A stretch of 64,000 bases of DNA from a plasmid, in sequence record NZ_CP137560.1. One strand, given 5' to 3'. Each line of letters opens with the position of its first letter. The first letter of the stretch is position 1. The notes beneath the pieces were generated by a model. It was not told where the DNA came from, did not search any database, and worked only from the letters and a program-made list of their open reading frames with translations. The position numbers and the translations under genes are program-made. Shown here piece by piece: positions 1,626 through 22,469 of this stretch.

Positions 1626-1958
1626 CTATGGTCTATTGTTCATTTCATTCAGACGGTTTGCAGCCTCCAGTCTTATCTCCTCCTCCGACATGGCTCTTGC
1701 TCCTCGTACCCAGTCAAGCAAGGCTTTCTTCTCAAAGAAGATGAGCTTGCCAGCAGGCTTGAAGTACGGCAACTGGTTAAGATGCGTCATCTTGTAGAGC
1801 GTGCTCTTGGCAATGCCGAGAAAGGCGGAAGCCTCTTCAAGGTTCAACACTTCCTTTGTCATATAGCAAAGGTTCTCCAACTTGTTCACTCTCGACTGAA
1901 GCTCCACTATCTTGCGCTCATGGTCGAGGTTCATCTTTAATGCGTTTTTTTCTGTCAT
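1626..1958 (-). CDS. helix-turn-helix DNA-binding protein, excisionase-like (paralog of 18904..19221)
   Basis: Shared ...LEEA..F.GI.KS.LYKMTH...LP.F.P.GK.I.FEK..LL.W.R... with 18904..19221; typical small Bacteroides mobile-element HTH protein. Confidence 0.6.
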   Translation of the reverse strand: MTEKNALKMNLDHERKIVELQSRVNKLENLCYMTKEVLNLEEASAFLGIAKSTLYKMTHLNQLPYFKPAGKLIFFEKKALLDWVRGARAMSEEEIRLEAANRLNEMNNRP

Positions 1959-2115
1959 AAATCTGATATTTTGTTTATTTTGTTATCGATTTCGGCTGCA
2001 AAGGTATATTGTTGCCAATGATATTCAAGCAGCCGTTATGGTTTATTAAAAGTGCTGATTTTCAATTCTTTGGTTCTATTTTACCATGCTGCAATGTGGT
2101 AGATTGGTCGGACAC

Positions 2116-2778
2116 TCACTTGAAATTCAGCATCTTCAAATGTCTATCGTTCAAACATTCACAAAACCAAGGATTGGACAATAAGGGTGGCAAATCTTTG
2201 GTTCTATTGCCAGTTCTCGTTTTTGAAAATGTCCAACAGAGTGAAAAACAAAATTTAACACCCGATATTTGCAAGTCATACTGTTTGAGGTCAAAATCGC
2301 TTGCAATAACCACATTTGGGGTACAATGGTAGGAAAATGAGTTGTGAATGAGAGAAATAGGGATTTCCCCTCGTTTTTCAAGGGACAAATTTGTACCTTT
2401 GCAAACGAAACAGAGGTATTCCACAAGGGATATTTCGGGCAAAGTGTTCTTGACTTTATTTTTCCGTGGTTTTGTCCCGTTTTTGTCCCTCGCTGATTTT
2501 GTATCACGAGACAAAAAATTATAAATAGCTGATTTACAGCGATAAAAGTCGTGTTTTGAAGAATTGGTAACGGCAACCACCAGTAACCACCAAAACGGAC
2601 CTTGGGAACCAATGAAATCAGCGTTACAAAGGAACTCGTTGGTCTGAAATACAACGTTGTCTATATCTTCCTCGAATAAATCCACGCCTATGGTTTTTGA
2701 AAGGTCCGAGATATAATCGCCCATTCCCGTCATAGTGCTACCTACAGAAGTATCTAAGAATAATGATGTAAATGCCAT
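2116..2778 (-). CDS. hypothetical protein (long ORF through an AT-rich, promoter-like stretch; true extent uncertain)
   Basis: 220-codon open frame; N-terminal ~100 aa look protein-like, remainder low complexity; an antisense TAccTTTG promoter-like motif lies inside it at ~2397. Confidence 0.3.
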   Translation of the reverse strand: MAFTSLFLDTSVGSTMTGMGDYISDLSKTIGVDLFEEDIDNVVFQTNEFLCNADFIGSQGPFWWLLVVAVTNSSKHDFYRCKSAIYNFLSRDTKSARDKNGTKPRKNKVKNTLPEISLVEYLCFVCKGTNLSLEKRGEIPISLIHNSFSYHCTPNVVIASDFDLKQYDLQISGVKFCFSLCWTFSKTRTGNRTKDLPPLLSNPWFCECLNDRHLKMLNFK

Positions 2779-2805
2779 AATGATATTTTTCTATTTTTTA
2801 AAGTT

Positions 2806-3546
2806 CTAGGGTTTTTCCTTAGCAAAGCCATCCACCGCCATGGCCGCTTGCCAGCGTTTATAAGCATCCTTGGCGATGACAACATTGGAAGAAAGTCGCT
2901 CCGGGGTGACGGCTTGCTCTGATATTTTTTTACTCTTTTTCAAGGAATTCCAATAAAGCAATTGTTTGACGAGAGTCAGATTTCTTTTGACCACATCCTG
3001 ATAGATGGCCAGGTACTCCTTCTTCCTCTTACCCAAGTCCTGATAGGACTCATGGGTAATCTTGATGGCGGTCTCAAAGCAATTGTAGAGATTTCTCCAA
3101 GATTGGTAGTCATTGGGGGAACCACCATAAGATACAATATTGTTGATGTTCTTGTTAAAGATCTCCATCTTACCATCGAGTTTGCTTTTCTCCAGTACCC
3201 ATGAAAGGTCACTGGCACTTGACCTTGAAACAATGTTGATAGCTTCCACCTTCGCTCGCTTGGTGTAATCAGAATCCACTTTCTCTGCCAAGTCTTGCTC
3301 CAGGGTTGTGTAGCCCATGACCTCCGTGCGGTAGAGCAATTTGTTTCTTGCATTGGCATCTTTTTGGTATTTCTTATGAAATGTGTTATAATACCAGGCA
3401 GGGGATAGGCTTCCAGCACCTGTCTCCATGGTAGTGAACTGGTTCATGATGTCACGTTCATGGACATAGGTCACTTCCTGAGCACCGGCATGTAGGCTCA
3501 TTGCGCACAGCAAACCTAAAATCAACTGTTTGAATTTACGTTTCAT
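2806..3546 (-). CDS. secreted protein (signal peptide), paralog of 3571..4386
   Basis: N-terminal signal peptide MKRKFKQLILGLLCAMSLHAGAQ; shared internal motifs (TFHKKYQK / TYHKKTSKK) and C-terminal (I/V)xKDxYxRWxAA with the next ORF. Confidence 0.5.
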   Translation of the reverse strand: MKRKFKQLILGLLCAMSLHAGAQEVTYVHERDIMNQFTTMETGAGSLSPAWYYNTFHKKYQKDANARNKLLYRTEVMGYTTLEQDLAEKVDSDYTKRAKVEAINIVSRSSASDLSWVLEKSKLDGKMEIFNKNINNIVSYGGSPNDYQSWRNLYNCFETAIKITHESYQDLGKRKKEYLAIYQDVVKRNLTLVKQLLYWNSLKKSKKISEQAVTPERLSSNVVIAKDAYKRWQAAMAVDGFAKEKP

Positions 3547-3570
3547 ATCTTTTAATTGCTTTTTTAAAGT

Positions 3571-4386
3571 TTAATCTTCTTTTCTTCCTCCAATCAAACT
3601 GCCGCCACCCAGGGGAGCATGGGTAACAGACTTCTTGTCTTGCAAGCAGTTATGAGCTTCATCACCAGCAGCCAACCATCTGGTATAGGAGTCCTTGACG
3701 ATCTCTTTGATGGTACGAGCCATGAATATCTCCTTTTTCCAGTACCCAAGCCTGATGGTCATATAGGTATGAATGTCCAAATAGGCATGATAGATGGTAT
3801 AGTCAATATGATCCATACTCTCGTTGATGGAATTAAGAATAACCATCAAGTTGGCTGTAGAACACTCTGACTCACCTGAAATAATCAAAGATAAATCCAA
3901 GTATGACTTATAGAGATTTAAAACGGACTTCTCAACCTCCTTGACGGCTCTTTTGCTGGTGTTGACAATCAGCGTATCAGATGACCAGATGGCACCATGG
4001 GAGAGGATTTTCTCATTGTATGTATCTATGAGCTTCCAATATCCAGTGATATTATGCTTGATGCTCTCATAGGTATTTACCCCATGAAAGGCCGTGGCAG
4101 TTCCCTTGAGAATCAAGTCCACAATTTCAAAGCAACGTTTATAATTATCGAGCTTTTGTTCTATCTCCCTATAGTCCGTTATTTTTTTGGAGGTTTTCTT
4201 ATGATAGGTATATGCGCCTAGTTCAGAGATGGCTCTTACTTCCAATACGGTTCTTACCGTCTTGTGGTTTTTAATCATTGCCTCCAAGCTGCCAACGTCA
4301 TCCTGTGCCCAAACATGAGAAGGCAATAAGAGTAGAAGCAAGAGTGTCAGAGGGTTGACTCTTGTTTTTATGATGGAGTATTTCAT
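3571..4386 (-). CDS. secreted protein (signal peptide), paralog of 2806..3546
   Basis: Signal peptide ...LLLLLLPSHVWAQ; C-terminal KDSYTRWLAA motif matching KDAYKRWQAA of the paralog. Confidence 0.5.
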   Translation of the reverse strand: MKYSIIKTRVNPLTLLLLLLLPSHVWAQDDVGSLEAMIKNHKTVRTVLEVRAISELGAYTYHKKTSKKITDYREIEQKLDNYKRCFEIVDLILKGTATAFHGVNTYESIKHNITGYWKLIDTYNEKILSHGAIWSSDTLIVNTSKRAVKEVEKSVLNLYKSYLDLSLIISGESECSTANLMVILNSINESMDHIDYTIYHAYLDIHTYMTIRLGYWKKEIFMARTIKEIVKDSYTRWLAAGDEAHNCLQDKKSVTHAPLGGGSLIGGRKED

Positions 4387-4395
4387 ACTTGATAC

Positions 4396-7077
4396 TTATT
4401 GTTTACTTTGTTTCAGACTGGTTGGCTTTTGTTCCGTTTCCAGGGGAGAGCACTTCTTCATGGCCTGAAGACTGGCTTCTTCCCATCTTTGAAGAGCATA
4501 GGATGCAATCGTGTTCCTCAATCTCCTGGAAACCACATCGAATATTTGTCGCTTGAGAAAATCCAGAACACATTCCCTTTGTGTCATCACCTTTTCTATG
4601 AGAACCAACTGAGCATAGATGCGGGTCAGTTCTTGCTCCACATAGCGAGCCACCTGCAAACGGTCACTGGCCAAGAGCAGATGAATCCCATCTTCATCAT
4701 CCTCATCATCTTTTGTCTGGCTTTGATAGTTGTATCTCATGGAAATGCTACAGTTCGGCATGTCATCCATCCACTTGCGCATTCTCTCGTTGACTTCATC
4801 AGTCAGTTCCTTCTCACTCTTGTTCATGTCAAGCTGCATGACCTCCAATACATTTTCAGAGCTGCTACTAGAGGTTAGCTTAAAATCCACGGACAAGATT
4901 GCTCTATGGATGCGGATGCCCAATGCATAACGAGGCTTACGAGAAAGCTTCAACGTAGCTGTGTAAGTAACTTGACTTTTGGCATCCGGACAGTAAGCGT
5001 GTCTTACGAATACATATTCATCGCTCCCCTGAATCCATTCTCCTTCATCCGCCCACTGCAAGTGGTACATGGAAGCGAGGCTTGCCATGTTGGATGGGAT
5101 GCGATAGGAACCAGAAAGATTGTCGCCCAAGTCCTTGTAATAATCATCCAAAGCCTGATTGAGCTCAGAAAGCATGCGTTCTTTCTGTTGCAAGTCCTGT
5201 TTAAGCAGGGCGTTCTCATTGGAAAGAGCATTATACTCATCATCCAACTTATTGGCCAGCGGATAATTCTTGCTAAACTTGGCCTGTTGGATCCTGGAAA
5301 GGAGATTTTTCTGCTTTGTATCATTCTCCTTGATTTCAGCTTTCAAATTCGCTATTTGCTGATTGAGCTTATTTTGTTTTTCAATGAGTGCCTTAGAGGA
5401 ATCATCCGCCAAGTTGGGCGTTGCTTCCATGGCAAAGTCCTTGGACTTTGGCCATTCCAAGGAGCCACCTTGATTACCATTTTCTTTCCAATTGAAACTT
5501 CCTTCTCCCAAGGAGGCTCCATCCTCACAGGCTGCAAGGAAACTCACAGAAGAGCAGCCTTGCATCTTCCTTTCATCGGCCATAGTATAGTAGCGTGGAT
5601 TGTCACTGCCTAGCTTGAAAGAGATAGTAGGGTGTTCGCCAAGAAACTTTTCATGCTCATCGATAACACCCTGAAGCCTTGCCTGCATTCTCTTCATGAA
5701 GGTGGTCTTGTCCATGGTCTGTGAGTCAAATATTTCCTCATAAACATCTTCCCTGATATCCCATTGGTCTCTCACCTTAACACGGTAAGAATGGAAACAA
5801 TAGCGTTCATCATAAGAATGGCTGAACAAGCCTCCTCCATAGTGGCGGTTTCTGTCCTCATGTCTCTTAACATAGGTAATGGTGCAGTCATGACCAGGGT
5901 TTTGGATATTATACTCATTACATTTAGCCTCATTCCACTCACATCTTTGGAAAAGTTTGTCCTTGAGCTCGGTATCTTCCGCTTCAGTAAGATACTTGTA
6001 GCAAGGTATTACAGAATAGTTCTGTCGTTTTTTCCCACTGGAATGGACAAACCAATCAAGATTCCATCCTGCGTCTCCCCAATTGTTATATCCGGCAGGA
6101 TTGTAGTCGCAAAGTACTCTGCTTCCAGCATCTTGCTGATAGATATACCAACGTTGGGTATAATACTGTCCTTGCATTTCTTCTATATAGGAGGAAATAT
6201 AACCAGAAATATTATAATCACTGATTTGGAATAATTTATCCACTGTGGCTTCATCTCCTTCACCAATCACGGTATAAAGAATCTCCTTGACATTAGTAGC
6301 ATTCTTGAAGGATTTGTATTTATCCCTGAAACTCTCATAGAGTCTGGCTATCTCCCTGGGCTTGGCCTTAAAGATACCTCCAATTTTGGTGACATCCTCC
6401 AGATTATGGTCAATGGCCACCTTACCTGCTTGCGCAATCACGCTGCCCAAATGCTTGAAATCATCAGCGATGTCATCCTGGGAAATTCCCTTGCCAAACT
6501 CTCCAAGCTTAGAAAAAAGACTCTTCCAGTCCACATCAGCAAGCTGCGCCAAGTCGAATAACTTTTGAAGCTTCTCATTGATTAGCAAGAATTGGATATC
6601 CTTGAAGGAGAACTTGCCATTGGTGACCACGCACTCAAACTGTTTGCAGAGGTTTTCGACATTATGGGTGGTCTTATACAGATAAGGTCCCCAATAGAGT
6701 GCATTCTCTGGCTGCTTGATCATTTTGCCAGCCACTGTGATGAACTTAGGCATGATGCCATCCTTTACCAATCTGAATATTCTATGGTAATAGTAATTTT
6801 CCTCCGTGGCAAACAAGCCTGGATTCCGGCGGGCCTCTCTCTCTTTCTTCTTGCTCAGGAAAATGCCGGCAGATGCGATACCTGCCGTTTTGTAATGCTC
6901 CAGTATTTTACTGATATGTGTAGCTGTGTTGCTCTCCTCCAAGGCTTCCGTAGCGTAGGCTGCCGACATGGCTGCCGCCGTGGTATAATCCACGTTGACT
7001 GCGTGCCAGCTCAAGGCCTGCGCCCGAGAGAACAAAAATATGGCAAAACAAACGAATGCTATGATTTTACGCATCAT
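4396..7077 (-). CDS. large secreted coiled-coil protein of unknown function, translationally coupled to traG
   Basis: ORF 4396..7134; likely start at MMRKIIAFVCFAIFLFSRAQA (~7077) directly after the traG stop at 7067; long heptad-like Q/K/E/L-rich region; no recognisable Tra homology. Confidence 0.5.
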   Translation of the reverse strand: MMRKIIAFVCFAIFLFSRAQALSWHAVNVDYTTAAAMSAAYATEALEESNTATHISKILEHYKTAGIASAGIFLSKKKEREARRNPGLFATEENYYYHRIFRLVKDGIMPKFITVAGKMIKQPENALYWGPYLYKTTHNVENLCKQFECVVTNGKFSFKDIQFLLINEKLQKLFDLAQLADVDWKSLFSKLGEFGKGISQDDIADDFKHLGSVIAQAGKVAIDHNLEDVTKIGGIFKAKPREIARLYESFRDKYKSFKNATNVKEILYTVIGEGDEATVDKLFQISDYNISGYISSYIEEMQGQYYTQRWYIYQQDAGSRVLCDYNPAGYNNWGDAGWNLDWFVHSSGKKRQNYSVIPCYKYLTEAEDTELKDKLFQRCEWNEAKCNEYNIQNPGHDCTITYVKRHEDRNRHYGGGLFSHSYDERYCFHSYRVKVRDQWDIREDVYEEIFDSQTMDKTTFMKRMQARLQGVIDEHEKFLGEHPTISFKLGSDNPRYYTMADERKMQGCSSVSFLAACEDGASLGEGSFNWKENGNQGGSLEWPKSKDFAMEATPNLADDSSKALIEKQNKLNQQIANLKAEIKENDTKQKNLLSRIQQAKFSKNYPLANKLDDEYNALSNENALLKQDLQQKERMLSELNQALDDYYKDLGDNLSGSYRIPSNMASLASMYHLQWADEGEWIQGSDEYVFVRHAYCPDAKSQVTYTATLKLSRKPRYALGIRIHRAILSVDFKLTSSSSSENVLEVMQLDMNKSEKELTDEVNERMRKWMDDMPNCSISMRYNYQSQTKDDEDDEDGIHLLLASDRLQVARYVEQELTRIYAQLVLIEKVMTQRECVLDFLKRQIFDVVSRRLRNTIASYALQRWEEASLQAMKKCSPLETEQKPTSLKQSKQ

Positions 7078-10317: not shown

Positions 10318-10578
10318 TTACAGACCAAAGAACAAAGGCAAGCTCTGAGCTGCGGCAATGAGGAAGATACAAGCACCTACTATCAGCATGATGCTCTTCT
10401 TGAAATCTTGCTGATTGTTCGTAACGTACTGATAATCAACACTGATTGGAATGATAAAATGACGAAAGAAACAAATTAGGAACAACATAATTGAGAAACC
10501 CCAAAATGAAAGTATGGGAAAACAAAAATTAACATAGAAAACAACGGAATTTTTCCGATTTTGGCATTCATAAATCAA
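10318..10578 (-). CDS. traE: chimeric TraE (DUF4134) ORF: authentic traE 3' end (10318..~10403) fused in frame to a repeat-encoded surrogate N-terminus
   Basis: C-terminus SIMLIVGACIFLIAAAQSLPLFFGL matches the TraE/DUF4134 C-terminal consensus; N-terminal 58 aa are encoded by the 248-bp repeat and recur verbatim at 13234..13608. Confidence 0.5.
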   Translation of the reverse strand: MIYECQNRKNSVVFYVNFCFPILSFWGFSIMLFLICFFRHFIIPISVDYQYVTNNQQDFKKSIMLIVGACIFLIAAAQSLPLFFGL

Positions 10579-10651
10579 CTACAAAAGAAGAATCTTATAA
10601 GTAGGTACATCTGTTTTCATTTTAACAGAATATAGTGATATGCAAGATAAA
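10404..10651. repeat. ~248-bp direct repeat, copy A (left end of the insertion in traE); carries a traE-like 5' coding segment
   Basis: Near-identical (a handful of mismatches) to 13434..13682; identity starts right after a TCTTGA at 10398..10403 and ends at gataaag. Confidence 0.85.
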
Positions 10652-10822
10652 GAGGGAAAGAGTCACTGTAAATCATACAAAAATCAATGGGATTTCCAAT
10701 TAGACAAATTATTTTCGCTTTTTATAATGATTTTCGGATTTAACAAACGATATTTGGAGAAGAATGAGTATTTTTGCAACCGAAAACAAAAATAATATAC
10801 GCAATGGCTTACGGAAAATCGT

Positions 10823-11020
10823 TTGTCAAGATTCCAAAATAGAATCACTCCGTCTTGGATAAAAGATATGGGGGAAAACGAGATTTTTGTGTTTGCCAGT
10901 AATGTCAACGGTTATCATGGAGGTGGACCTCATGTGAATTTTGAAACACTGAAGCCAAATCCCAACAAACCTGGAAAGATGATGGTTGATCAAAATTATC
11001 ATGTTTTCATAACCGAATAA
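10823..11020 (+). CDS. hypothetical small protein
   Basis: First ORF of a same-strand run of short AT-rich ORFs between the repeats. Confidence 0.25.
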   Translation: MSRFQNRITPSWIKDMGENEIFVFASNVNGYHGGGPHVNFETLKPNPNKPGKMMVDQNYHVFITE

Positions 11021-11024
11021 TAGA

Positions 11025-11285
11025 ATGAAAAAAGTCACATTAAATGTTCCGAATTATTCCCCTGATACCGGAGTGGCACTCAATTGGGAAGGTAATTTCA
11101 CAATTAAGGTCTCCGATATAAATGGGAGCGTCTCAATTGAGGCTAATACCGAGGGATTAGTTTCTTTAGCAAATCACTTGCTAAATTTATCCCAATCATC
11201 GGTTCCTATAGGAACTCATCTTCATCTTGATGAGTACAACTCTCTTGAAGAAGGATCTTTAGATTTAATAATCGAAAAGATTTGA
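11025..11285 (+). CDS. hypothetical small protein (immunity-protein-like size)
   Basis: 86 aa, 4-bp spacing from the upstream ORF. Confidence 0.3.
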   Translation: MKKVTLNVPNYSPDTGVALNWEGNFTIKVSDINGSVSIEANTEGLVSLANHLLNLSQSSVPIGTHLHLDEYNSLEEGSLDLIIEKI

Positions 11286-11348
11286 TTCCAATAAGTCTGT
11301 TTATGGGTCTGACAATACGATCCATAAACAAATCTAATAGATTAACAG

Positions 11349-11699
11349 ATGATTGAAGATATGTTCTTTTGCGTTCTTTCAATTGTAGTGGGAGGCTATT
11401 TAGTGTCTCAAAAATTAAGAGCTATTTATAATAGACTCCCCCTTTCTCTAAAAGATAAGATTTCTTTTGGGGAAGGACTCATCCTAATTATATCTGGGTT
11501 CATTGCATTATATGTGAAATCGGCTATACCAATTAATGCTTTGCTTTTTGGGTGTTTCCTACTTCCGAAAATGTATCAACAAGAAAAGTATTGGAATGCT
11601 CGTCGTTTTACAACCGCATACATAATGCATTGTAGCGGTTGGATTTTAAGTATAGGGCTTATTATCTATGGTATTCTCCAATTATTTCAGCCTATATAA
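11349..11699 (+). CDS. hypothetical small membrane protein
   Basis: 116 aa with 3-4 predicted TM helices. Confidence 0.35.
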   Translation: MIEDMFFCVLSIVVGGYLVSQKLRAIYNRLPLSLKDKISFGEGLILIISGFIALYVKSAIPINALLFGCFLLPKMYQQEKYWNARRFTTAYIMHCSGWILSIGLIIYGILQLFQPI

Positions 11700-11740
11700 A
11701 TTGTAAGAACATAGATTAGTTCAACAATAAAACAAATTCA

Positions 11741-12118
11741 GTGAGGCTATGTTTAAAAAAAATTGAAAATCGAATTGTTATCACACCGCCTTCAGGCATG
11801 ACTGTTGAGCAATTTGATGAGATGGTTATTAAAACAGGTAATAGCTTTGGAAATAATCCCAATATTACATACTGTTTAGAGCCATTCGAACAAACACAAG
11901 GTAATTGTAATTCAAGTTCAAGTACGTTGCTTTATAAAGCGGGGGTTCCTTTAAGTAGGATAAAGGATTTGAGGAAGCAAATATCAGGTTTTGTTTGGGG
12001 ATTTGGTGATATTAAACCGTGGACAGTAGAGGAACAGTCAAAAGCTGTTCAGAGGCAGAGGGAATTCGACCAACTCCGTAATGAAATGATGAACACAATC
12101 ATCCTTAACAAATATTAA
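11741..12118 (+). CDS. hypothetical protein
   Basis: 125 aa; stop overlaps start of next ORF (taaATG). Confidence 0.3.
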   Translation: MRLCLKKIENRIVITPPSGMTVEQFDEMVIKTGNSFGNNPNITYCLEPFEQTQGNCNSSSSTLLYKAGVPLSRIKDLRKQISGFVWGFGDIKPWTVEEQSKAVQRQREFDQLRNEMMNTIILNKY

Positions 12119-12595
12119 ATGAGAAAATTGAGTTTTAAAATGGTCATAAGAGCATATTTAATATGTGCTCTTATGACATCAATATTAGGAATTATATCAT
12201 GCAGTGTTCATGACATAATAAATTGGTTTCCAATCGTATTACTTTATGCTTGGATAATATTGTCTCCAATATCTATTTTAGCATTGATAACTGTATATTT
12301 ATTGGGAGTTCAAAGAGATTGGATTTGTAAGATACCGTTAATTTGCTTATGCGCATTTATAGTATATTTTATAAACCTAAACTCATCAGAATCTTATTTG
12401 ATTAATTTTTTTGCAACCCAAACCGTACCATATGACCTTCTATATTACAATAATGGAATAGAGATAAGGGTCAATGACACTATTTTTTCTATTTTCACAT
12501 GGGTATTATCGTATTTTATATTAGTATTGCTTATTGTTATATCTACAATTATGTATAGATTTTTTAAAAAGCATAGCAAAATAAAATTATTCTAA
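12119..12595 (+). CDS. hypothetical polytopic membrane protein
   Basis: 158 aa, at least four hydrophobic helices. Confidence 0.35.
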   Translation: MRKLSFKMVIRAYLICALMTSILGIISCSVHDIINWFPIVLLYAWIILSPISILALITVYLLGVQRDWICKIPLICLCAFIVYFINLNSSESYLINFFATQTVPYDLLYYNNGIEIRVNDTIFSIFTWVLSYFILVLLIVISTIMYRFFKKHSKIKLF

Positions 12596-12639
12596 AATAA
12601 AGTGTTCTCATTAGTGATGATACTAAATCATTCTGTACA

Positions 12640-13434
12640 ATGCTCACCATCCAGCACAGCGGCCCAGACGGTGAGATTACCACCACCTTCGAGTACGACG
12701 GCATACAGCGCCTTGTTCGTGTCACCGACATGGAGGGCAATGTAACGACCTCTACTTACGACATGGGTGACCGCCGTACTGAGGTGAACCATCCTGCAAG
12801 CGGCATCACAAGTTTCACTTATGATGCGCTCGGCAATGTGCAGACTAAGCAGACTGCCAACCTTGCCAAGGAAGGAAAGTTCATTACTTACGATTACGAC
12901 TATCAGCGTCTGACGGGTATCAACTACCCAGACCATCCGGAGAACAACGTGAAGTATTACTATGGTGGTCGCAACGCCTCTCAGAACCGTATCGGTAGAT
13001 TGATGCTCCGCGAGGACGGAACAGGTGCCATTGAGTATTTCTATGGCAAGATTGGCGAGGTGACGAAGACCCGCCGCACGATGATTGTGCCTAACCAGGC
13101 GATAGCAACCTACGTGACGCAATGGACTTACGACAGCCACAACCGTCTGTTGGAGATGATTTATCCTGATGAGGAGAAAATCACTTACTCTTACAATCTC
13201 GGTGGTCAGCTTGAAAAGGTCCATGGCTACAAGTCATACGGCTATGACTATGTGAGCAAGATTGGCTATGACAAGTTCGAGCAGCGCAGCTACCTGAAGT
13301 ATTGCAACGGCGCGGAGACATTCTACACCTTCGACAACCGCCGCCGTCTCAGCAATCTCGCGGTCAACAGCGGCAACACGTCCATCATGGACAATGACTA
13401 TACGTTTGACGCGGTGAGCAATGTCCTCTCTTGA
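12640..13434 (+). pseudogene. RHS/YD-repeat protein fragment (internal repeat region only; no N-terminus, no C-terminal tip)
   Basis: Repeated YD motifs (FEYDGIQRL, STYDMGDRR, FTYDALGNV, ITYDYDYQRL, WTYDSHNRL, YTFDNRRRL); abrupt GC-rich block in AT-rich surroundings; terminated by stop inside the TCTTGA junction with repeat B. Confidence 0.7.
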
Positions 13435-13682
13435 ATCTTGCTGATTGTTCGTAACGTACTGATAATCAACACTGATTGGAATGATAAAATGACGAAAGAA
13501 ACAAATTAGGAACAACATAATTGAGAAAACCCCCAAAAAAAGTATGGGAAAACAAAAATTAACATGGAAAACAACGAAATTTTTCCGATTTTGGCATTCA
13601 TAAATCAACTACAAAAGAAGAATCTTATAAGTAGGCACATCTGTTTTCATTTTAACAGAATATAGTGATATGCAAGATAAAG
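13434..13682. repeat. ~248-bp direct repeat, copy B (left end of the integrase-bearing element)
   Basis: Near-identical to 10404..10651; preceded by TCTTGA (13429..13434). Confidence 0.85.
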
Positions 13683-13818
13683 GTAACTATTCAGTTCACC
13701 ACTACACAGAATGATAAGATTGCTTAATAAATACGAAATAGTATAAACTTGTTTAATAAAAATAACAACATGTTTGTTTTTGGACTATATTTACAACAAA
13801 TTTTAAAATTTATCAATT

Positions 13819-14178
13819 ATGTATATGGCTAATACTGCTACGGATACGTTGTCAACGGAAACCATGAATCCTCCAAAAGGTTCTTATGTCAATATGGTTG
13901 GTCAAGCGACAGGGAAAAGAGTAAGTGGAACTATCTCCAATGTTTCATATGATGTTCTTAATGCAAGTAAGAAAGTGTTGCTTCAAGATGTTTATCTTGC
14001 GACATATACTTCAAAAAGCGGTGATAGTGGGGGTATTGTATATGCTCTACGTTCAGCACACAATCAACGTCTAACTGTAGGTATAAATATAGGTTCTGCA
14101 AAAATTAACCGTACTACTTATGGCATGTGTGTAAAAGCATCGAATATAAATAGAATTTTTGGACTTACAAGATACTAA
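13819..14178 (+). CDS. orphan C-terminal half of a trypsin/chymotrypsin-fold serine protease domain (possible toxin-tip fragment)
   Basis: KSGDSGGIVY (GDSGG serine nucleophile motif) followed by GINIGSA, but no upstream His/Asp barrel; only 119 aa. Confidence 0.4.
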   Translation: MYMANTATDTLSTETMNPPKGSYVNMVGQATGKRVSGTISNVSYDVLNASKKVLLQDVYLATYTSKSGDSGGIVYALRSAHNQRLTVGINIGSAKINRTTYGMCVKASNINRIFGLTRY

Positions 14179-14187
14179 AGGGCTGTC

Positions 14188-14697
14188 ATGAATTTCTTAT
14201 TTAAGACATTTTGCATTATGGTCATATTCACGATGTTCGTGGATATGACCGCTCTAAGTAATAACATAACGAATAGAGATGGTTTATGGCGTGTTGATTC
14301 AGACTCCGTCACAATTACCACAAGCTATAGTGAGAAACAGCCAGAAAAATTAAATGTATGCATTTATAATCACAGCAATTCGACGATATATATAGGGCGA
14401 ACTTATGGATTGTTGATGCAAGTAGATGGGGAATGGAAATACATTGCCAAAGGTAGAAATCAAAAGTGCATAACTATATGGCCAGCGTCAAAACGTAACT
14501 TTCAAGTCAGTCTATGCGCTAAGAAAATAAAAAGCTCCTCTGGATGGGCATATAGAACAGATTCACTTTACAAAGTAAGATTTGACATGTATGACAGCGA
14601 TGGCGTTTTTATTGACAAAATGGACTCTGATTTCAAAGTTTCTGGTAATATTGTTTGGCATCTGACTGACGGATTAGTGATTATACATTTAGATTGA
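14188..14697 (+). CDS. secreted/membrane-anchored hypothetical protein (candidate immunity partner)
   Basis: N-terminal hydrophobic signal/anchor MNFLFKTFCIMVIFTMFVDMTALS; 10-bp spacing from the upstream ORF. Confidence 0.4.
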   Translation: MNFLFKTFCIMVIFTMFVDMTALSNNITNRDGLWRVDSDSVTITTSYSEKQPEKLNVCIYNHSNSTIYIGRTYGLLMQVDGEWKYIAKGRNQKCITIWPASKRNFQVSLCAKKIKSSSGWAYRTDSLYKVRFDMYDSDGVFIDKMDSDFKVSGNIVWHLTDGLVIIHLD

Positions 14698-14706
14698 ATA
14701 TTCCAA

Positions 14707-15111
14707 ATGCGACATCTCAATTCTTCAATATACGTAGATTGGTTGGATCCATCAATGCCCGCTCGTACATGTGGAAGAACAGCAGAAAATATAAAAGAGA
14801 AAATAAAAAAATATGATAAGTTTATACTTGTTGCTACAGAAGGTGCTATTGCGTCAAAATGGTGCAATTGGGAATTAGGCTTTGGTGATGCTCAAAAGTA
14901 TGCTTACGGTAAAATAGCCTTATTTCCTATCCGTTATGACGAAAAGGATTGGTCAGAAAGTGAATACTTAGAACTATATCCTGTTATAGGATATATTGAT
15001 AGTTGTCAATATTCGGATGAGTTTAATCAATCCCTTTTTACAGGTTATTATGTTTTTTGTCATTATGGCACGAAGAAGGCAATAAAATTGGTTGATTGGT
15101 TATCGAGATAA
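14707..15111 (+). CDS. TIR-like domain protein (stand-alone, 134 aa)
   Basis: KFILVATEGAIASKWCNWEL closely resembles the TIR alphaC-region motif (cf. [20 protein letters not shown] in TLR TIR domains); size matches a single TIR domain. Confidence 0.4.
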   Translation: MRHLNSSIYVDWLDPSMPARTCGRTAENIKEKIKKYDKFILVATEGAIASKWCNWELGFGDAQKYAYGKIALFPIRYDEKDWSESEYLELYPVIGYIDSCQYSDEFNQSLFTGYYVFCHYGTKKAIKLVDWLSR

Positions 15112-15169
15112 TAATAGAAATCGCCTAACTTTAAGTGCAAACTTAATGTTAGGCAGTAACTCGTCTATC

Positions 15170-15772
15170 TCATATATAGTTCTGTGCAATTATCATTCCA
15201 ACACCTCCTGCAACAACAAAGATACCAATCGTGAAGAAAAAACAAAAGAACCATTGTGCATAGTGACCGAGATAGCAACCATCATATTCCTTGTAGCGTT
15301 CACGGACTTTCTTCCGTTCATCGGCAAACATGGAATTGACCTCACGGATATGCATCTGCATCTGTGCGGTCATCCATTGGCGTTCTTTGGCAAACAGTTC
15401 TTGGATTTTCTGCCAGTCAGCATCATTGACATTTACAGACACCTTTAATTTAGTGGAAGCATTCTCCAAGACCTTGTCTATGTGCTGATTGATGGTATCT
15501 ACCTTTTTGCCGATGGTAGTCACAGCACCACCCAATTGAACTTCCGAACGCTGATACTGCTGAATGGCAGACTCCAGTTCAAGTGTGGCATTGATGAAGG
15601 TGTCGGTTGCCTTATCAATGTCCTTACTCAACTGCTTCAACTCAGGAACACGGTTTACAAGTCCGTCTTCGGCTTGCTGTTCCTCGACCTCGTTTTCGAC
15701 ATCATTCATCATGTTGTCGAAGTCGGATCTTTCTTCTGTGTCTATGTTTATCTTGCTTTTTCTGATTGCCAT
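15170..15772 (-). CDS. hypothetical coiled-coil protein with C-terminal TM anchor, downstream of relaxase
   Basis: 200 aa, acidic coiled-coil N-terminus, hydrophobic C-terminal ~35 aa; 12-bp gap after relaxase. Confidence 0.4.
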   Translation of the reverse strand: MAIRKSKINIDTEERSDFDNMMNDVENEVEEQQAEDGLVNRVPELKQLSKDIDKATDTFINATLELESAIQQYQRSEVQLGGAVTTIGKKVDTINQHIDKVLENASTKLKVSVNVNDADWQKIQELFAKERQWMTAQMQMHIREVNSMFADERKKVRERYKEYDGCYLGHYAQWFFCFFFTIGIFVVAGGVGMIIAQNYI

Positions 15773-15784
15773 ATTGTTATTGAT

Positions 15785-17017
15785 TTATCGGTGGAAACTT
15801 CTACTGCGTGGTTTAGGCTTGCACATGGAATGAGCCATCTGTGCGCAACGGTGGGCAAACTTCCAGTCATCTTCATCGTCTTTCTTTCCCCAACCAGATT
15901 CAGGAGAAGAACCGCCACCGCCACATGACTCAGACATGGAAGTGGCTGCATCAATGTACCCTGCAAACAACAGCATTGCTACATGAGCGACATTCTCCGT
16001 TGTCGCTATATCATTATCCTCTGGAATCTGAGCCTCATTAGTAAAGACATCTTTGACAGAGTTCGGAATCCACACCTTCTTGACTCCATCGCCAATGTTA
16101 ATTTGGAATGCTGTTTTTGAAGGTTGAACTTGTGCCTTTGGTTGTGATGCTGTTGAAGTCTGAGCGACAGGACGAACTGGGCGAGGCGTTGAAGCAACGG
16201 ATGGTGAAACAGGCTTTTCCTTGACCTGTGTAGGTTGTGGGTGCAGTTTCTTCCATGTGTCTTCAATCTTTGACACCATGTACTTTCTGCCAATCTCAGA
16301 AGCCTTGAACACGGAAGCGTTCTTGCCGACTGTATAGCCGACAAGTTTCCGCTGCTTGTCGTAACGAGGTTTAACCTCATAGCCTTTCATGCGCAACAGA
16401 TTGAAATATCTGTCAATGTTGAACTGCTGCATATCTTTGAGGATATGTTCGCAATCCTCCGCAAGTTCAGCCTTTCGCATATTCCGAATCTCCTGCGGTT
16501 GTTCCCATCCATGGCGCTTATTGATGATTTCCGCAGCCTTCATTGCCCGAAGGTGAATATCGTGTACATCATTGGTCTTACCCTCCATATCCACACGACA
16601 ACAATCAATGTGAAGGTGCAGCATTCCAGACTTGGAATCAGAGTGCAGTCCGCCCACATTCATAGAATTGGTGAAGTTGGTCTTTATTTCATTGGAGAAA
16701 CCGTTGGGCGAAAGTCCAACAGAATCCAAAACTCCCAATGCTTCGTCTTGGAGGTTTGCCCAATCTGCCATCGTGAAGTTTGCAGACTCTTCCTTTGATG
16801 GGGAAAGTACAAAAGTGGTCATGAACCTTTCCAACTTTCTGCCAACCGTCCTTTCCGCCTGATGATACTGGCAATGATGCTTCATCATGTACCAGATGGC
16901 GGTAGGGTCAAGACCATCGGGCATGTTGTTCACCTTGACCGTCTTTGCCTTCTCCTTTTCCAATGCGTACCTTACGGAATTGCCTCCATACGATACGACC
17001 TTTGCGAGCATAATCAT
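15785..17017 (-). CDS. mobilisation relaxase (MobA/VirD2-type relaxase domain, Bacteroides MobB-like)
   Basis: N-terminal MIMLAKVV.YGGNSVRYALEKEK motif (relaxase motif I with Tyr), HLHID His-cluster motif, Pro/Ser-rich linker. Confidence 0.8.
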   Translation of the reverse strand: MIMLAKVVSYGGNSVRYALEKEKAKTVKVNNMPDGLDPTAIWYMMKHHCQYHQAERTVGRKLERFMTTFVLSPSKEESANFTMADWANLQDEALGVLDSVGLSPNGFSNEIKTNFTNSMNVGGLHSDSKSGMLHLHIDCCRVDMEGKTNDVHDIHLRAMKAAEIINKRHGWEQPQEIRNMRKAELAEDCEHILKDMQQFNIDRYFNLLRMKGYEVKPRYDKQRKLVGYTVGKNASVFKASEIGRKYMVSKIEDTWKKLHPQPTQVKEKPVSPSVASTPRPVRPVAQTSTASQPKAQVQPSKTAFQINIGDGVKKVWIPNSVKDVFTNEAQIPEDNDIATTENVAHVAMLLFAGYIDAATSMSESCGGGGSSPESGWGKKDDEDDWKFAHRCAQMAHSMCKPKPRSRSFHR

Positions 17018-17424
17018 GATTGTTCCTTTGATTTTGTCTGTACGTTTGTTGCGATATTCTCTTCAATGCTATACCAATGTTGGATAAGTCCTGCAACGGC
17101 ATCAATCCACCAACGCATGAACTTCTCATTCTTGAAGAACCGAGCCTTTTCCTCAGCCGTTTTCTTGGATAGCACGTTGCTGATTTTTATCAAATCCGTC
17201 CTTGCGATGGCGAGAGAGTTGAGAGCGTCCACCTCTTCCTTGGTGAGCCTCATGCGTGGACGGTGCTTTAAGCCAGTCTCAACGACATAGCGGCTCAGGC
17301 TTAACCCACACTCCTTGGCATGTGTCTGGAGACGTTTCAATTCCTCTTCCGTGCATCGGTAGGTATGGACTTCCGTAGGCGGTTTTCTTATGATGTTCTT
17401 CTTTCTCATTTGTTCTTGTCTCAA
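17014..17424 (-). CDS. MobC-family relaxosome accessory protein
   Basis: 136 aa; overlaps relaxase start by 4 bp; RHH-like ...CTEEELKRLQTHAKECGLSLSRYVVE... typical of small Bacteroides Mob proteins. Confidence 0.65.
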   Translation of the reverse strand: MRQEQMRKKNIIRKPPTEVHTYRCTEEELKRLQTHAKECGLSLSRYVVETGLKHRPRMRLTKEEVDALNSLAIARTDLIKISNVLSKKTAEEKARFFKNEKFMRWWIDAVAGLIQHWYSIEENIATNVQTKSKEQS

Positions 17425-17503
17425 ATTAAAATGGGATGATTACAAGCATCTTACAAAGGTGGTCACGACTGCGAGCCTGCGAGTAGTCCGAGAAACTTTT
17501 AGG

Positions 17504-17534
17504 AATACAGAAAGACGGACACGGCTTCTGTATT
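17504..17534. promoter_or_regulatory. candidate oriT hairpin: AATACAGAA-(13 nt)-TTCTGTATT inverted repeat in the mobC-upstream intergenic region
   Basis: Perfect 9-bp inverted repeat in the 270-bp gap upstream of mobC, where oriT is found in NBU-type elements. Confidence 0.3.
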
Positions 17535-17694
17535 ACAAAAGGATTTCTCGAAAAGTACCTATAAAATGACGGCACTTTTAACAGCCTCCGTCCCCAAGGC
17601 TGCTTAAACGTATAACAGTTGGGCGGTAGCCTATGGCGGTTAATCGTCCTTTGGGATGATTTTTATGTATAGTGGCTTATTTGCCTCTGTATGC

Positions 17695-18519
17695 CTATTG
17701 ATTGCCGTTATGGTATTCGTTAGGTTTGTAGCCATTGGCATTAGAACCGTTCGACTGTTGTGTTTGACCTCCAAACTGATGCTGTGGATATGTGTTGTGC
17801 TCTCCCTCATTCTGTTTGGCATCTGCTTCTTGCAGGGAAGAAGGATTGCCAACAGACTGTCTGGAGTAGTTTTGCTGTGGAGAAATTCCACCAGTAATAG
17901 CATCGGAAAGATTGCCATTAGTTCCGATCTTACCCACGCTTCCATTATCATTAGATGAAGCCGAATTTAGGGAAGAAGAAATATCTGCCGTAGAAGAATT
18001 GCCCTTTTTGTCTGTATCGGATATTCCATTGGAAAAATGCCCATCTTCCTTGTCCGACTTTGTATCAACCCCCGTTGTCGTAACAATTACTCTTACTTGT
18101 GGAACTTCCGTGTGGATGATTGCAGAGCCATCAGTATTGCGCTTCAATGAAAATCCGTTCTTGAAAAATCTTCCGTCCACATACCAACCAGAGAGGGAAT
18201 GCAGGGTAATGATGCGGTTGTCTCCAACTTTTTGTGAAGAGGAAATCCCCACAGCCTCCATAGCCTGTAAAAGTTTGGGTACGGTCTTGCGGTCTTTATC
18301 CCAGAGTTTGGCAAGTTGGGTATTGTCAACCATACATTGCCCACACAAGATTTCCACTTGTTGGGTCTTGCTGATAGGTACAAGTGTTGTTTCACGTTCG
18401 GCAAGAGAGGCAAGAGACATGAAGCATTCCATGCGGTCAATCTTGTACTTCTTGCAGCGAAGATACTCCATCTGTACATCGGACAGCGTGAAGTAGTAAT
18501 GTATCTTTTGTTTATCCAT
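17695..18519 (-). CDS. conserved mobile-element backbone protein (paralog of 552..1202)
   Basis: Motif LAKLWDKDRKTVPKLLQAMEAVGI shared with 552..1202; Ser/Gly/Asn/Gln-rich C-terminal tail. Confidence 0.5.
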   Translation of the reverse strand: MDKQKIHYYFTLSDVQMEYLRCKKYKIDRMECFMSLASLAERETTLVPISKTQQVEILCGQCMVDNTQLAKLWDKDRKTVPKLLQAMEAVGISSSQKVGDNRIITLHSLSGWYVDGRFFKNGFSLKRNTDGSAIIHTEVPQVRVIVTTTGVDTKSDKEDGHFSNGISDTDKKGNSSTADISSSLNSASSNDNGSVGKIGTNGNLSDAITGGISPQQNYSRQSVGNPSSLQEADAKQNEGEHNTYPQHQFGGQTQQSNGSNANGYKPNEYHNGNQ

Positions 18520-18583
18520 CTTCTGTAAATTTTGAATATTATAACCATAAATGGCAAGACTGTTTTTCTCAGTAAAGAGAAAA

Positions 18584-18901
18584 TCATCTGTGCCGTCCTC
18601 TCCTTGGGGAAATGTCCTCTGCTATAACATAGAGCTCGCCTTGCAACCTGTCATTAGAATGGCTGCTTAATCGTGAAATGCACTCAATGCAGACAGACTG
18701 GGCAAGAAGTTTTCTTCTTCCGACAGTTGCTTCATCATTGATGCCCTTGTTGGCTCCGCATTGTTCGGCAAGCTGATTGAAAGCATCACGCATCCGAAAG
18801 TAGCCGTTGCCAGTATTGATGTAGCTCACGGCAAGGTCAGCGACATTCGCCAACTTGCTTCTGTACTCCTCATGGGAAATATCGTCCTTCATCATCGCCA
18901 T
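18584..18901 (-). CDS. hypothetical protein, mobile-element backbone
   Basis: 105 aa; 2-bp gap from the HTH gene. Confidence 0.35.
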   Translation of the reverse strand: MAMMKDDISHEEYRSKLANVADLAVSYINTGNGYFRMRDAFNQLAEQCGANKGINDEATVGRRKLLAQSVCIECISRLSSHSNDRLQGELYVIAEDISPRRGRHR

Positions 18902-18903
18902 GT

Positions 18904-19221
18904 CTATTTACAAAGTTCACTCATGTGCTTGGTCGCTGCAGCCTTGGTCTCAGCCTCGGACATACTGCGGTTCTGGCGCATCCAGTTCAAAAGTTCGGAC
19001 TTCTCAAAGTAGATAATCTTGCCGTTGGGACGGAAGAACGGAAGTTCATGCTTGTGTGTCATCTTGTAGAGACTACTCTTTGATATACCCATGAATAAGG
19101 CTGCTTCCTCCAGTGTCAATACTTGCTTGGCATCACGGAGTAGGTTCTCCATTATCCCAATGCGGTGCTCATGTGACTCTACCTTCAAGAGAAGAGTCTC
19201 GGTGTCGATAGTTTTGTTCAT
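18904..19221 (-). CDS. helix-turn-helix DNA-binding protein, excisionase-like
   Basis: LTLEEAALFMGISKSSLYKMTHKHELPFFRPNGKIIYFEKSELLNWMRQ; paralog of 1626..1958. Confidence 0.6.
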   Translation of the reverse strand: MNKTIDTETLLLKVESHEHRIGIMENLLRDAKQVLTLEEAALFMGISKSSLYKMTHKHELPFFRPNGKIIYFEKSELLNWMRQNRSMSEAETKAAATKHMSELCK

Positions 19222-19360
19222 TATCCTGTAATTTATTGTTTGTAATTCGTTGTACTGCTTGTTTTGAAAGTGTAGTCCCCCAAGACAGAGAGAATTCCCT
19301 GCCCGAAAAATGGGGACTACAAAAGTGAAATTTACTGGTTGTTATCCTGAAAAGTTCCGT

Positions 19361-20677
19361 TTACTTGTTATCCTGTAAAAAAGTTATTCTGCGTGGATGG
19401 GTGTTGGTGGCTGCTGTCCGCTTTGTCCTCGGTATTTGCTTGTTCTCCTCACGCTGTTTGCGACCTCGAAAGGCTTTCTTCGTGTTGTCAACAGCCTTGA
19501 CCTTTTCATTCGTCAGCACATCTGCATAGATGGCGGTGGATTTGAGCGACTTGTGTCCCATCAGTTTCTTGGTAGTCTCAATGTTGCCGGTAACCGCCTG
19601 CACCAAAATTCCGAATGTATGTCGGGAACAGTGAAAAGAGATATTCTTCTCAATGCCCACCTTTTTGGCTATCCTTTTAAGGGCAGCATCCACATTAGCC
19701 TTAGCAGGAAGGTGGAACACAAAATCATCATCACCTTTGGGTGGCATCCATGACAAGGCGGTATTGCCGATTGGTACGGCATTGAGAGCCTTTGTTTTCT
19801 TTTGGACGATTACAAGCGTGTTCGTTTCCTTGTTTCTCTTGATGTCACTCCACCGCAGAGCCTTGATGTCGCTTATACGAAGTCCTGTCAGACAGGCGAA
19901 ACCGAAAGCCTTTTGTGTCTCTGCAACTCCTGGACTTCTCTCATCTGAAGCCATGAACCTTTTCAGTTCATCGGGAGTGAGATACTGCTTATGTGATGAC
20001 TTTGGCTTGGGAAAGATGTCAGACTTCTCCAACAGGTAGAAAGGGTTAGCCTTCAATTTACCGAACTTGACAGCCTTGTTGAATACCGCCACTGTGCGCT
20101 GTTGAACATTGTGAAGCGAGCCTTCACACAAAGGCTTGGCTTCAACTCGTACATACTTCTGTGGTACATAGTCGTTCTTCAGCCAAAGGAAGAAAGCCTT
20201 GAACCATTCCTTGTCGAACTTCCTCAGAGTGATGTGAGGTCTGCGCTTGTTGGCAAGGAACTCGCTCATTAGGTATTTCAAATACTTTGACTGGTCAACA
20301 ATAGCCTTGGAGTAGTCTGTATTGTCGCTCATCCAGTCGATGTAAGTCTGGATCCAGTCCATGACTTCGGGAGACTCGTCATTGGGGATTTCCTTCACAA
20401 TCATCAAGTGACCTACCTCTGGGATGGTCTCTGGATGAAGAATACGCTCTGCCCTTATCTGGTGAGCACGTTGCAATGTTTCTTCGTTTCTTGCTTTGGT
20501 CTCTGCATCAACCTCTGGCAACAAATAGAGAGAAAGAAATTCAAACTTGCGCTTGCCACCATCGTAGATGTCAAGATACAAGCTTATGTTGTCGTTGGCA
20601 AGTGCCTTTTGTCTGATAGTTATTGTCATGTCTATATATATATTCGTTGTCAATGATTTATGTGAACATACCGTCAA
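19361..20677 (-). CDS. tyrosine site-specific integrase with N-terminal arm-DNA-binding domain
   Basis: N-terminal ISLYLDIYDGGKRKFEFLSLYL arm-binding-type domain; C-terminal HCSRHTF...LMGH...STAIYADV (R-H-R-Y catalytic signature). Confidence 0.85.
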   Translation of the reverse strand: MTVCSHKSLTTNIYIDMTITIRQKALANDNISLYLDIYDGGKRKFEFLSLYLLPEVDAETKARNEETLQRAHQIRAERILHPETIPEVGHLMIVKEIPNDESPEVMDWIQTYIDWMSDNTDYSKAIVDQSKYLKYLMSEFLANKRRPHITLRKFDKEWFKAFFLWLKNDYVPQKYVRVEAKPLCEGSLHNVQQRTVAVFNKAVKFGKLKANPFYLLEKSDIFPKPKSSHKQYLTPDELKRFMASDERSPGVAETQKAFGFACLTGLRISDIKALRWSDIKRNKETNTLVIVQKKTKALNAVPIGNTALSWMPPKGDDDFVFHLPAKANVDAALKRIAKKVGIEKNISFHCSRHTFGILVQAVTGNIETTKKLMGHKSLKSTAIYADVLTNEKVKAVDNTKKAFRGRKQREENKQIPRTKRTAATNTHPRRITFLQDNK

Positions 20678-21830: not shown

Positions 21831-21978
21831 GATGTATGAAGTGTTATTTTGTTTTTGTATTCTGCTACATTGGAGGGTCTTTCTCCCTCTTGTTGAAAGT
21901 TCATGTCAGATATGGTTTCCTATGCTGACATTTGCTTTTCTTTCTCTTCCCTTACTTCGGAAAACTGATGTAAAGATA

Positions 21979-22024
21979 AGAAAACAAACCGAGAAACGAG
22001 AAACAAAACGGAAACAAGAAACAG
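21979..22024. repeat. cluster of 4-5 direct (A/G)GAAAC(A/G) repeats; candidate integrase arm-type sites at the int-proximal element end
   Basis: aagaaaacaaaccGAGAAACGAGAAACaaaacgGAAACaaGAAACag between the integrase start and the traE junction. Confidence 0.4.
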
Positions 22025-22028
22025 TCTT

Positions 22029-22469
22029 TTATGTCTTTTTAAGAGTGAGTTTAGCAAACATCGGAAAATTCAAATTGTCGCTTAAAGCATTGATACTTAG
22101 CGCATTTACTTTCATTTGCTTTCTTGTCTTTTCAAACGCATTTTGTAGGACTAAGATATTCTTGACATCCTGCTCCTCGTTGTTCATCTTCACATACACG
22201 GAGATAGCACCGATGATAGCTACGATACCTGCAATGGCATAGCAGAGGTTGGTGACCACAGGCACATACTTCTTCAAGCTATCTGTAGAGGTCTCGATGG
22301 CTGCAAGACCGGCATCCACATTCTGTGCGAAAGTGGAAATAGACACCACCAAGAGCATCATGGTCAACATACCCATGCGTGGGTTAGAAACGAAAGACTT
22401 GGCTTTCTTCACAGTGGCTGTGGCGCAACGTTTTGCGCCGCAAGCCAAATTACTGATTACTTTGTTCAT
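22029..22469 (-). pseudogene. traE: traE 5' fragment (DUF4134 signal peptide and first TM, through ...VYVKMNNEEQDVK) whose ORF then runs into element DNA
   Basis: MLTMMLLVVSISTFAQ signal peptide and AIETSTDSLKKYVPVVTNLCYAIAGIVAIIGAISVYVKMNNEEQDVK are TraE-like; the following 43 aa (NILVLQNAFEK...) are encoded by the inserted element. Confidence 0.6.

Follow-up and report, generated by a model that had tools for sequence, protein, structure and literature searches.

A family of mobilizable elements from Bacteroidota at a preferred site in the pilin-like conjugation gene traE, and the reading frame at its far end

Integrative mobilizable elements (IMEs) need conjugative elements for transfer. 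NBU1 and NBU2 are Bacteroidales elements of ~10-12 kb. They code for a tyrosine integrase with a domain for arm binding, for a small protein that acts in excision, and for mobilization proteins of their own. They lack a mating apparatus, have a short block of identity between the attachment sites of element and target (attP and attB), and also use secondary sites (PMC5704250). They target tRNA 3' ends, which are regenerated after insertion (PMC5704250). IMEs from Firmicutes insert in traG/VirD4, Maff2-related and SNF2 genes of conjugative elements of the Tn5252 superfamily (PMC5704250). Here, we describe an element that is inserted in the traE gene of a Bacteroidales conjugative transposon, on the plasmid with sequence record NZ_CP137560.1. 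A stretch of 64,000 nucleotides (nt) from this plasmid was analyzed ("the window"). A preliminary description of this stretch had suggested that one end of the element supplies a replacement N-terminus for TraE. We consider it likely that this end, one copy of a direct repeat of 249 bp, serves a site-specific mobilizable element residing in traE as its far-end attachment arm, and that the open reading frame (ORF) which it carries is a by-product of the arm. An evolved replacement N-terminus would have been the more striking result, but it is not favoured by the evidence. Of greater use are the family of elements and the site that it targets. No description of a traE-targeting element in Bacteroidota was found in the full-text library that was searched.

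TraE (DUF4134) is considered to be the pilin, similar to VirB2, in mating systems of the Bacteroidetes type (PMC4027160). One TraE homologue (P0192) additionally has a TrbC/VirB2 Pfam domain. In the window, the start of the transfer operon of the transposon is found on the minus strand between 7 and 10.4 kb, with traG, traF and no more than the last 28 codons of traE, which is split (Table 1). The displaced 5' part consists of the first 101 codons (...GAISVYVKMNNEEQDVK) and is encoded on the minus strand at 22166-22469, 11.8 kb from the 3' part. Loci with an empty site were found by using the reconstructed sequence of an intact TraE as protein query. The search gave intact TraE proteins of 129 amino acids, which are 98% identical to the reconstruction and are encoded on contigs L029-L031. 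These contigs carry the same conjugative transposon minus the insert, with genes for a 157-residue protein, a DUF4134 paralog of 117 residues, TraE, TraF and a 970-residue TraG. The heptamer TCAAGAA is present as a single copy in L029-L031 and once per junction in the window, and the flanks are 98-99% identical. From the alignment, attB reads ...GAGCAGGATG TCAAGAA GAGCATCATG..., while the two junctions read ...GGATG TCAAGAA TATCTTAG... (attL) and ...CAAGATT TCAAGAA GAGCATC... (attR). Because the empty site has a single core and the flanks are nearly identical, the insert comprises 10404-22158 plus one core, which is 11,762 bp. The element boundaries and the empty site are thus established by alignment.

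The reconstructed attP core, as read from the sequence, is AAGAT-T-TCAAGAA-T-ATCTT, where 5-bp inverted repeats flank the 7-bp overlap. Inverted repeats around a short overlap are the typical core layout for tyrosine recombinases. The integrases of the element would recombine this core with the look-alike traE site GGATG-TCAAGAA-GAGCATC, which corresponds to codons for the loop that links both hydrophobic helices of the pilin. Integration splits traE, and the gene would be restored if the element were excised precisely at the 7-bp core, with GGATGTCAAGAAGAGCATC as the expected sequence of the regenerated attB. Contig L011 was considered as a possible circular junction, since its junction has TTCAAGAATATC, as does the reconstructed attP. 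The two part after 4 nt, however, and L011 represents a secondary site.

The junction is not confined to this plasmid. The chimeric ORF, which runs from the element into traE, has 524 homologues in the protein collection, and their element-encoded part is 70-98% identical. Among the best 120 of the 524 clusters, ~113 continue into a TraE tail, always from the same traE codon, and these tails comprise at least 29 different sequences; 7 clusters are fused to non-TraE sequences. Sources of the homologues include Bacteroides thetaiotaomicron, B. ovatus, Segatella hominis, Prevotella pectinovora and Alloprevotella. The homologue from Segatella hominis is 100% identical to the window ORF when counted from an internal ATG. 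A protein search is biased towards open frames and TraE fusions, so that far ends were also collected with an ORF-blind DNA pattern. In that sample, the element end is joined to traE at this codon in 12 of 19 outer junctions, to a remnant resembling traE in one, and to other sites in six. The sequences that follow the core at secondary sites may resemble traE, which is an impression from their listing and not a count. Among the fetched loci, the element end adjoins 13 different DNA alleles of the traE 3' part, and one identical chimera is present in two different transposon backbones. A scan of species-representative genomes gave just 2 loci, and for this reason the distribution was taken from metagenome contigs and protein clusters. 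Integration thus recurs at one internal site of a conserved conjugation gene. From this recurrence across TraE tails, traE alleles and backbones, we infer that traE is the preferred attachment site of a mobile and widespread family. The evidence for mobility is indirect and consists of the same end being found at 13 traE alleles, in two backbones and at no fewer than six other sites.

The gene content of the insert was analyzed with Pfam, NCBIfam and PADLOC profiles (Table 1). There are two tandem tyrosine integrases, which have a mutual identity of 34%; their domain matches have E-values from 1e-13 to 1e-22. Further genes code for a protein of the excisionase family, for a NikA/MbpA-like protein and for a candidate relaxase. 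Among ORFs of at least 80 codons within 10404-22158, no type IV secretion domains were detected. The element has its own site-specific recombinase, and its att sites are defined by a core copy in either junction and by the corresponding empty site. As judged from its predicted genes, the content is that of an IME of the tyrosine-recombinase type. In its overall description it is similar to NBU1 and NBU2. Unlike these, it has two tandem integrases, its mobilization proteins resemble MbpA/MbpB only weakly, and its target is the protein-coding traE gene of a conjugative transposon, which is split rather than regenerated. It shares with the elements from Firmicutes the use of a conserved conjugation-module gene as specific attachment site, so that it is nested in a potential helper. 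While those elements use serine recombinases, the element described here has tyrosine integrases with candidate arm sites, is found in Bacteroidota, and targets the gene for a VirB2-like pilin.

The ORF at the far end was the subject of the preliminary description. It reported a 248-bp repeat which encodes, on the minus strand, an ORF continuing in frame into the TraE C-terminus. This is confirmed, with the repeat size corrected to 249 bp. The two repeat copies are 97% identical, with a spacing of 3030 bp. Only copy 1 is an element end; copy 2 is internal and does not represent the opposite end. The ORF starts with MIYECQNRKN..., proceeds via ...IPISVDYQYVTNNQQD, and continues without a change of frame as FKKSIMLIVGACIFLIAAAQSLPLFFGL*, which is the C-terminus of authentic TraE. 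Its TTG start is immediately preceded by a TAG in the window, at a position where relatives have GAG. A full-length match to DUF4134 would cover the leader, the first helix, the loop and the second helix. In the chimera, only residues 49-84 match, which correspond to profile positions 58-93 of 93. The N-terminal TraE fragment at the other junction covers profile positions 2-70.

Close to the core, the element end resembles the traE sequence that it displaces. Left of the common TCAAGAA, 12 of 19 nt are identical (19 of 26 when the core is counted), which agrees with the two-thirds identity over ~20 nt that had been noticed before. The probability of such a match in a fixed register is ~0.0006-0.003. 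Over the next 101 nt upstream, only 29 (29%) are identical to traE, and the background level is reached ~25 nt from the core. The resemblance of the repeat to traE is limited to this short stretch. It would represent the core-type recognition and crossover region that is common to attP and attB. A second degenerate traE-like stretch deeper in the arm (EYQNRKNSVVFHVNFCF compared with EEQDVKKSIMLIVGACIF) was also considered. It obtained ~2 bits in hmmsearch and has ~41% DNA identity when aligned by hand, and was attributed to chance.

In the window alone, the similarity amounts to one 19-nt stretch with 12 matching positions, and both this similarity and the in-frame ORF might have resulted by coincidence from one random insertion. 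The preliminary description had itself allowed for a coincidental match at a single junction. Such a coincidence has next to no probability, given the fixed-register value stated above, the clean crossover at the 7-bp core that the empty site reveals, and the recurrence of the junction with at least 29 TraE tails and 13 traE DNA alleles in two backbones.

Another alternative is the one originally proposed, namely that the element end has evolved as a surrogate for the N-terminus of TraE, perhaps with a promoter, so that a chimera of 86-96 residues keeps pilin function and traE-traF-traG are expressed. Several observations are in its favour. The fusion is always in frame (for contig L016, see below), and an in-frame chimeric ORF after integration recurs in hundreds of protein clusters. 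Of 13 variants, 11 have a frame that is open over 53-86 codons. An ATG or GTG start is present in many variants and results in proteins of 96-98 residues. One hydrophobic segment of transmembrane length is followed by a loop, NNQQD-FKK, that is like NNEEQD-VKK. Finally, none of the substitutions between variants creates a stop codon (see below).

However, the similarity to TraE ends after ~8 codons. With the element-encoded peptide alone (58-71 residues), no Pfam match was obtained at E<=10, and neither 116 intact TraE proteins nor a profile made from them were significantly similar to it. Intact TraE is composed of a leader, a mature N-terminal segment and a pair of hydrophobic helices. In the chimera, one hydrophobic stretch that results from T-rich codons takes the place of the signal peptide, of the mature N-terminal segment and of the first transmembrane helix. 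That the surrogate N-terminus lacks an obvious signal peptide had already been noticed, and the mature N-terminal segment is equally gone; the membrane topology would be inverted, as deduced rather than computed. The substitutions between variants do not bear a coding signature. Variable sites at codon positions 1/2/3 number 18/16/19 in 12 variants and 23/19/27 in 13 variants, which is devoid of periodicity. As controls from the same material, integrase 1 gave 34/16/158 and the traE 3' part 10/4/21. The pairwise ratio of nonsynonymous to synonymous substitution rates in the surrogate region is ~0.4-1.4, and thus near 1. The start is not conserved, as the variants use different ATG, GTG or TTG codons, and the upstream stops vary too. 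The TAG in the window, where relatives have GAG, is an example. The ISV of the previously noted protein-level match is variable within the family (IGV, IYI, ISI), and the same ORF is also fused to unrelated, non-TraE targets. Among the nine distinct variants that were collected independently of the ORF, two (L014 and L024) have 1-nt indels that shorten the frame to 41-42 codons. At the junction in L016 (1107-1137, minus strand), an extra G (AAGGAAGAT in place of AAGAAGAT) puts the chimera out of frame. This contig has low coverage (2.4x by name), so that the extra G may be an assembly error. Taken together, this makes a selected TraE N-terminus very unlikely.

Some mobile elements do regenerate the gene into which they insert. 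This occurs by tRNA 3'-end duplication, and prophages 21 and e14 carry a replacement 3' end of icd. The comparison with tRNA-targeting elements in the preliminary description is appropriate at the level of attP/attB homology: attP resembles the target at the crossover, and a continuous in-frame ORF exists after integration. It does not extend to replacement of the displaced part. In gene-regenerating elements, the homology of the borne segment extends over the entire displaced part and the resulting product is functional, whereas here homology is restricted to ~25 nt and ~50 further codons are unrelated to TraE. The segment is not homologous to the whole displaced part, and its substitutions do not reveal constraint on a gene product.

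We assume that the long open frame is a by-product of a T-rich arm which is dense in conserved TTGTTTYC motifs. Each repeat copy has three matches to TTGTTTYYY within 79 nt. In the alignment of the 13 variants, the invariant blocks are TTGTTTT, TGTTTTC.CAT, TTTGTTTCTTT and the 20 nt adjoining the core, and the motifs coincide with invariant blocks. The integrase-end arm has two strict matches and a near-match (TTGTTTCCG), all in the same orientation as the far-end motifs, and ~205 nt from the core are conserved with the sister element in L032 but divergent beyond. The window as a whole has 23 matches to TTGTTTYYY, with 10.8 expected. Since both integrases have arm-binding domains and both arms carry the motifs, the TTGTTTYC motifs are probably arm-type integrase sites.

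Several points weigh against an attachment arm with an incidental ORF. The attP junction, in an excised or tandem form, was not found in viral contigs or in any fetched locus. Excision and the binding of integrase to the motifs are predictions, and the assignment of the relaxase depends on matches below curated cut-offs. Four of the 13 variants came from the protein search, which favours open frames. The frame is longer than predicted, as the probability of 58 open codons is ~0.03-0.08 by composition. Among at least 87 changes, stop-creating substitutions are absent (0, with ~3.6 expected). Due to the long open frame and the absent stop substitutions, a weak pressure for an open outward frame is conceivable, for example to limit polarity on traF-traG.

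In a further alternative, the outward ORF or the arm has a role other than in the pilin. It might provide a promoter and a leader that limits traF-traG polarity, code for a membrane peptide that interferes with the pilus, or be part of a gene that is completed in attP. The ORF is indeed somewhat longer than expected by chance. In the circular form, the frame would extend by 45 codons into the integrase-end arm, and these tails are open in P0201-P0205. In relatives, a divergent XRE regulator is encoded ~200 bp off, so that the region must have at least one promoter, and there is one outward Bacteroides-type TAnnTTTG motif, 391 nt from the core. However, matches to promoter consensus sequences, including sigma-70-type ones, occur at chance frequency. 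A gene spanning attP in the excised circle was rejected: neither half has codon periodicity (23/19/27 for the far end, 10/9/12 for the differences in the 45-codon tail at the integrase end), and the circular-form ORF has a single weak Pfam match (DUF7476, E=0.029, under the cut-off). We consider a non-pilin role of this kind unlikely. It is tempting to speculate that the family is a dedicated rider on the pilin gene, where splitting and restoring traE would couple the mating apparatus of the helper to excision of the element, with the frame kept open so that translation would proceed into traE'-traF, thereby limiting polarity on tra genes further downstream; this is rather doubtful at present.

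Regardless of the ORF, this is a family of elements that prefer the gene for a pilin-like protein of the very machinery that they would need. The family occurs in gut Bacteroides, Segatella/Prevotella and Alloprevotella, and accounts for many of the genes that public genomes list as "partial DUF4134". It offers a simple and testable system, as insertions may disable the conjugation of the helper, hitch-hike on it, or switch it reversibly.

The second repeat copy is explained by a nested structure, with the far-end arm of one element being found inside another. The junction of copy 2 reads GAT|TCAAGAG, with a core-like secondary site (TCAAGA), and joins the arm to an Rhs fragment. In contig L012, the copy-2 type of end is joined directly to traE and is followed by the same interior (98.5% over 2.3 kb). 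In L023, the copy-1 type of end is followed by Imm32 and an Rhs fragment that is unbroken past the position of copy 2 in the window. The entire two-copy arrangement is present in L020 (97.5% over 7.2 kb), where it is joined to a site other than traE, and the identical junction between end and Rhs fragment is found in L020, L026, P0054 and P0065. The simplest history would have three steps. First, the Rhs fragment in an L023-type element would have received an L012-type element by integration. The resulting composite would then have been excised via the integrase end of the inner element and the far end of the outer element, and would now move as a unit. This is similar to the accretion model for cis-mobilizable elements, integrative and conjugative elements and IMEs, as the internal second arm and the foreign cargo fit recombination between att sites with subsequent movement of the composite (PMC5704250). 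It differs in that the inner element would have entered a secondary site in the cargo of the outer element, the Rhs fragment, and not an att site. The composite illustrates how cargo (Rhs and immunity modules) may be gained by nested integration.

Table 1. Features of the split traE locus and of the inserted element (positions are those of the window unless a contig is named).
Feature	Position	Strand	Remarks
traG, VirB4-type ATPase, 970 aa	7067-9979	-	98-99% identical to L029-L031, where Pfam P-loop_TraG is recorded; downstream of split traE
traF, DUF4133, VirB3-like, 99 aa	10008-10307	-	Pfam DUF4133 E=2.4e-6
authentic traE 3' part, 28 codons + stop	10318-10403	-	second hydrophobic helix; base-for-base alignment to intact traE of L030
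chimeric ORF, 86 aa, TTG start	10318-10578	-	58 element-encoded residues, then TraE C-terminus
attR core copy TCAAGAA	10397-10403	-	inside traE 3' part
copy 1 of 249-bp repeat	10404-10652	-	far-end attachment arm (P-type arm), the functional one; homologous far ends in 13 distinct variants, all stopping at the same core
three TTGTTTYYY motifs	10466-10474, 10517-10525, 10536-10544	-	candidate arm-type integrase-binding sites, putative function
far-end sequence common to relatives: intergenic region and remnant of divergent XRE-type HTH gene	10653-10820	-	84-98% identity to L001-L009, L013, L015, L021-L023, L027, L028
cargo from second, L023-type element	10653-13433	+	Imm32 11025-11285, three small ORFs, Rhs-repeat fragment 12640-13434; Pfam Imm32, RHS_repeat
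copy 2 of repeat	13434-13682	-	former far end of inner L012-type element, now internal, joined to Rhs fragment
element body	13683-21830	-	Pfam, NCBIfam and PADLOC matches
ThsB-like TIR protein (cargo)	14707-15111	+	PADLOC ThsB profiles E=6e-47, only from profile position 59 on
relaxase-like MbpB candidate	15785-17017	-	MbpB E=7e-23, Pfam Relaxase E=0.002, both under curated cut-offs
NikA/MbpA-like protein	17014-17424	-	NikA-like match passes Pfam cut-off
excisionase-family HTH_17 protein	18904-19221	-	
integrase 2	19361-20677	-	Arm-DNA-bind_5, Phage_int_SAM_5, Phage_integrase
integrase 1	20658-21830	-	Arm-DNA-bind_5, Phage_int_SAM_5, Phage_integrase
integrase-end attachment arm	21831-22158	-	has TTGTTTYC motifs
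traE 5' part (22166-22469) and 45 element codons in frame, 146-aa ORF	22029-22469	-	same 146-aa fusions in P0201-P0205
attL core copy TCAAGAA	22159-22165	-	
second DUF4134 (TraE-like) paralog, intact, 117 aa	22531-22884	-	directly upstream of split traE; Pfam DUF4134 E=1.6e-19
intact HTH genes in relatives	L001 4012-4239, L035 1100-1309, L036 560-769, L037 1197-1412, L038 84-305		

Further genes of the element are as follows. The TIR protein may be a truncated or solo Thoeris-type cargo; a ThsA-like partner was not detected among the neighbours scanned. Relatives code for an intact XRE-type protein of 69-75 residues (HTH_26/HTH_3), divergent from the far end. In the window, only a remnant of this gene is left (~10764-10862, plus strand), with homology to the relatives ending near 10820. 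The sister element in L032 is inserted in the same transposon and at the same traE site, and its integrase 1 is 90% identical to that of the window. L032 codes for a third, weakly integrase-like protein of 416 residues (13987-15237; also in L033 and L034), between the excisionase region and the mobilization genes.

The second DUF4134 gene is also present in the empty-site loci, so that the host transposon normally has two pilin-like genes. TraF is a VirB3 homologue (PMC4027160). The genes traG-traN have been reported as essential in CTnDOT; an explicit statement on traE was not found. In L007, a different transposon with the same chimera, traG is shortened to 479 codons and is followed by an HTH_17 gene and a gene for a 368-residue integrase (1818-5803), which may reflect insertion of a different element. 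In L004 (2503-4152), a gene for a 341-residue protein is flanked by two copies of a gene for an 84-residue protein within the tra operon. Elsewhere in the window, a 45-nt imperfect inverted repeat (43524-43568 and 59551-59595) has arms that are 73% complementary and 16 kb apart.

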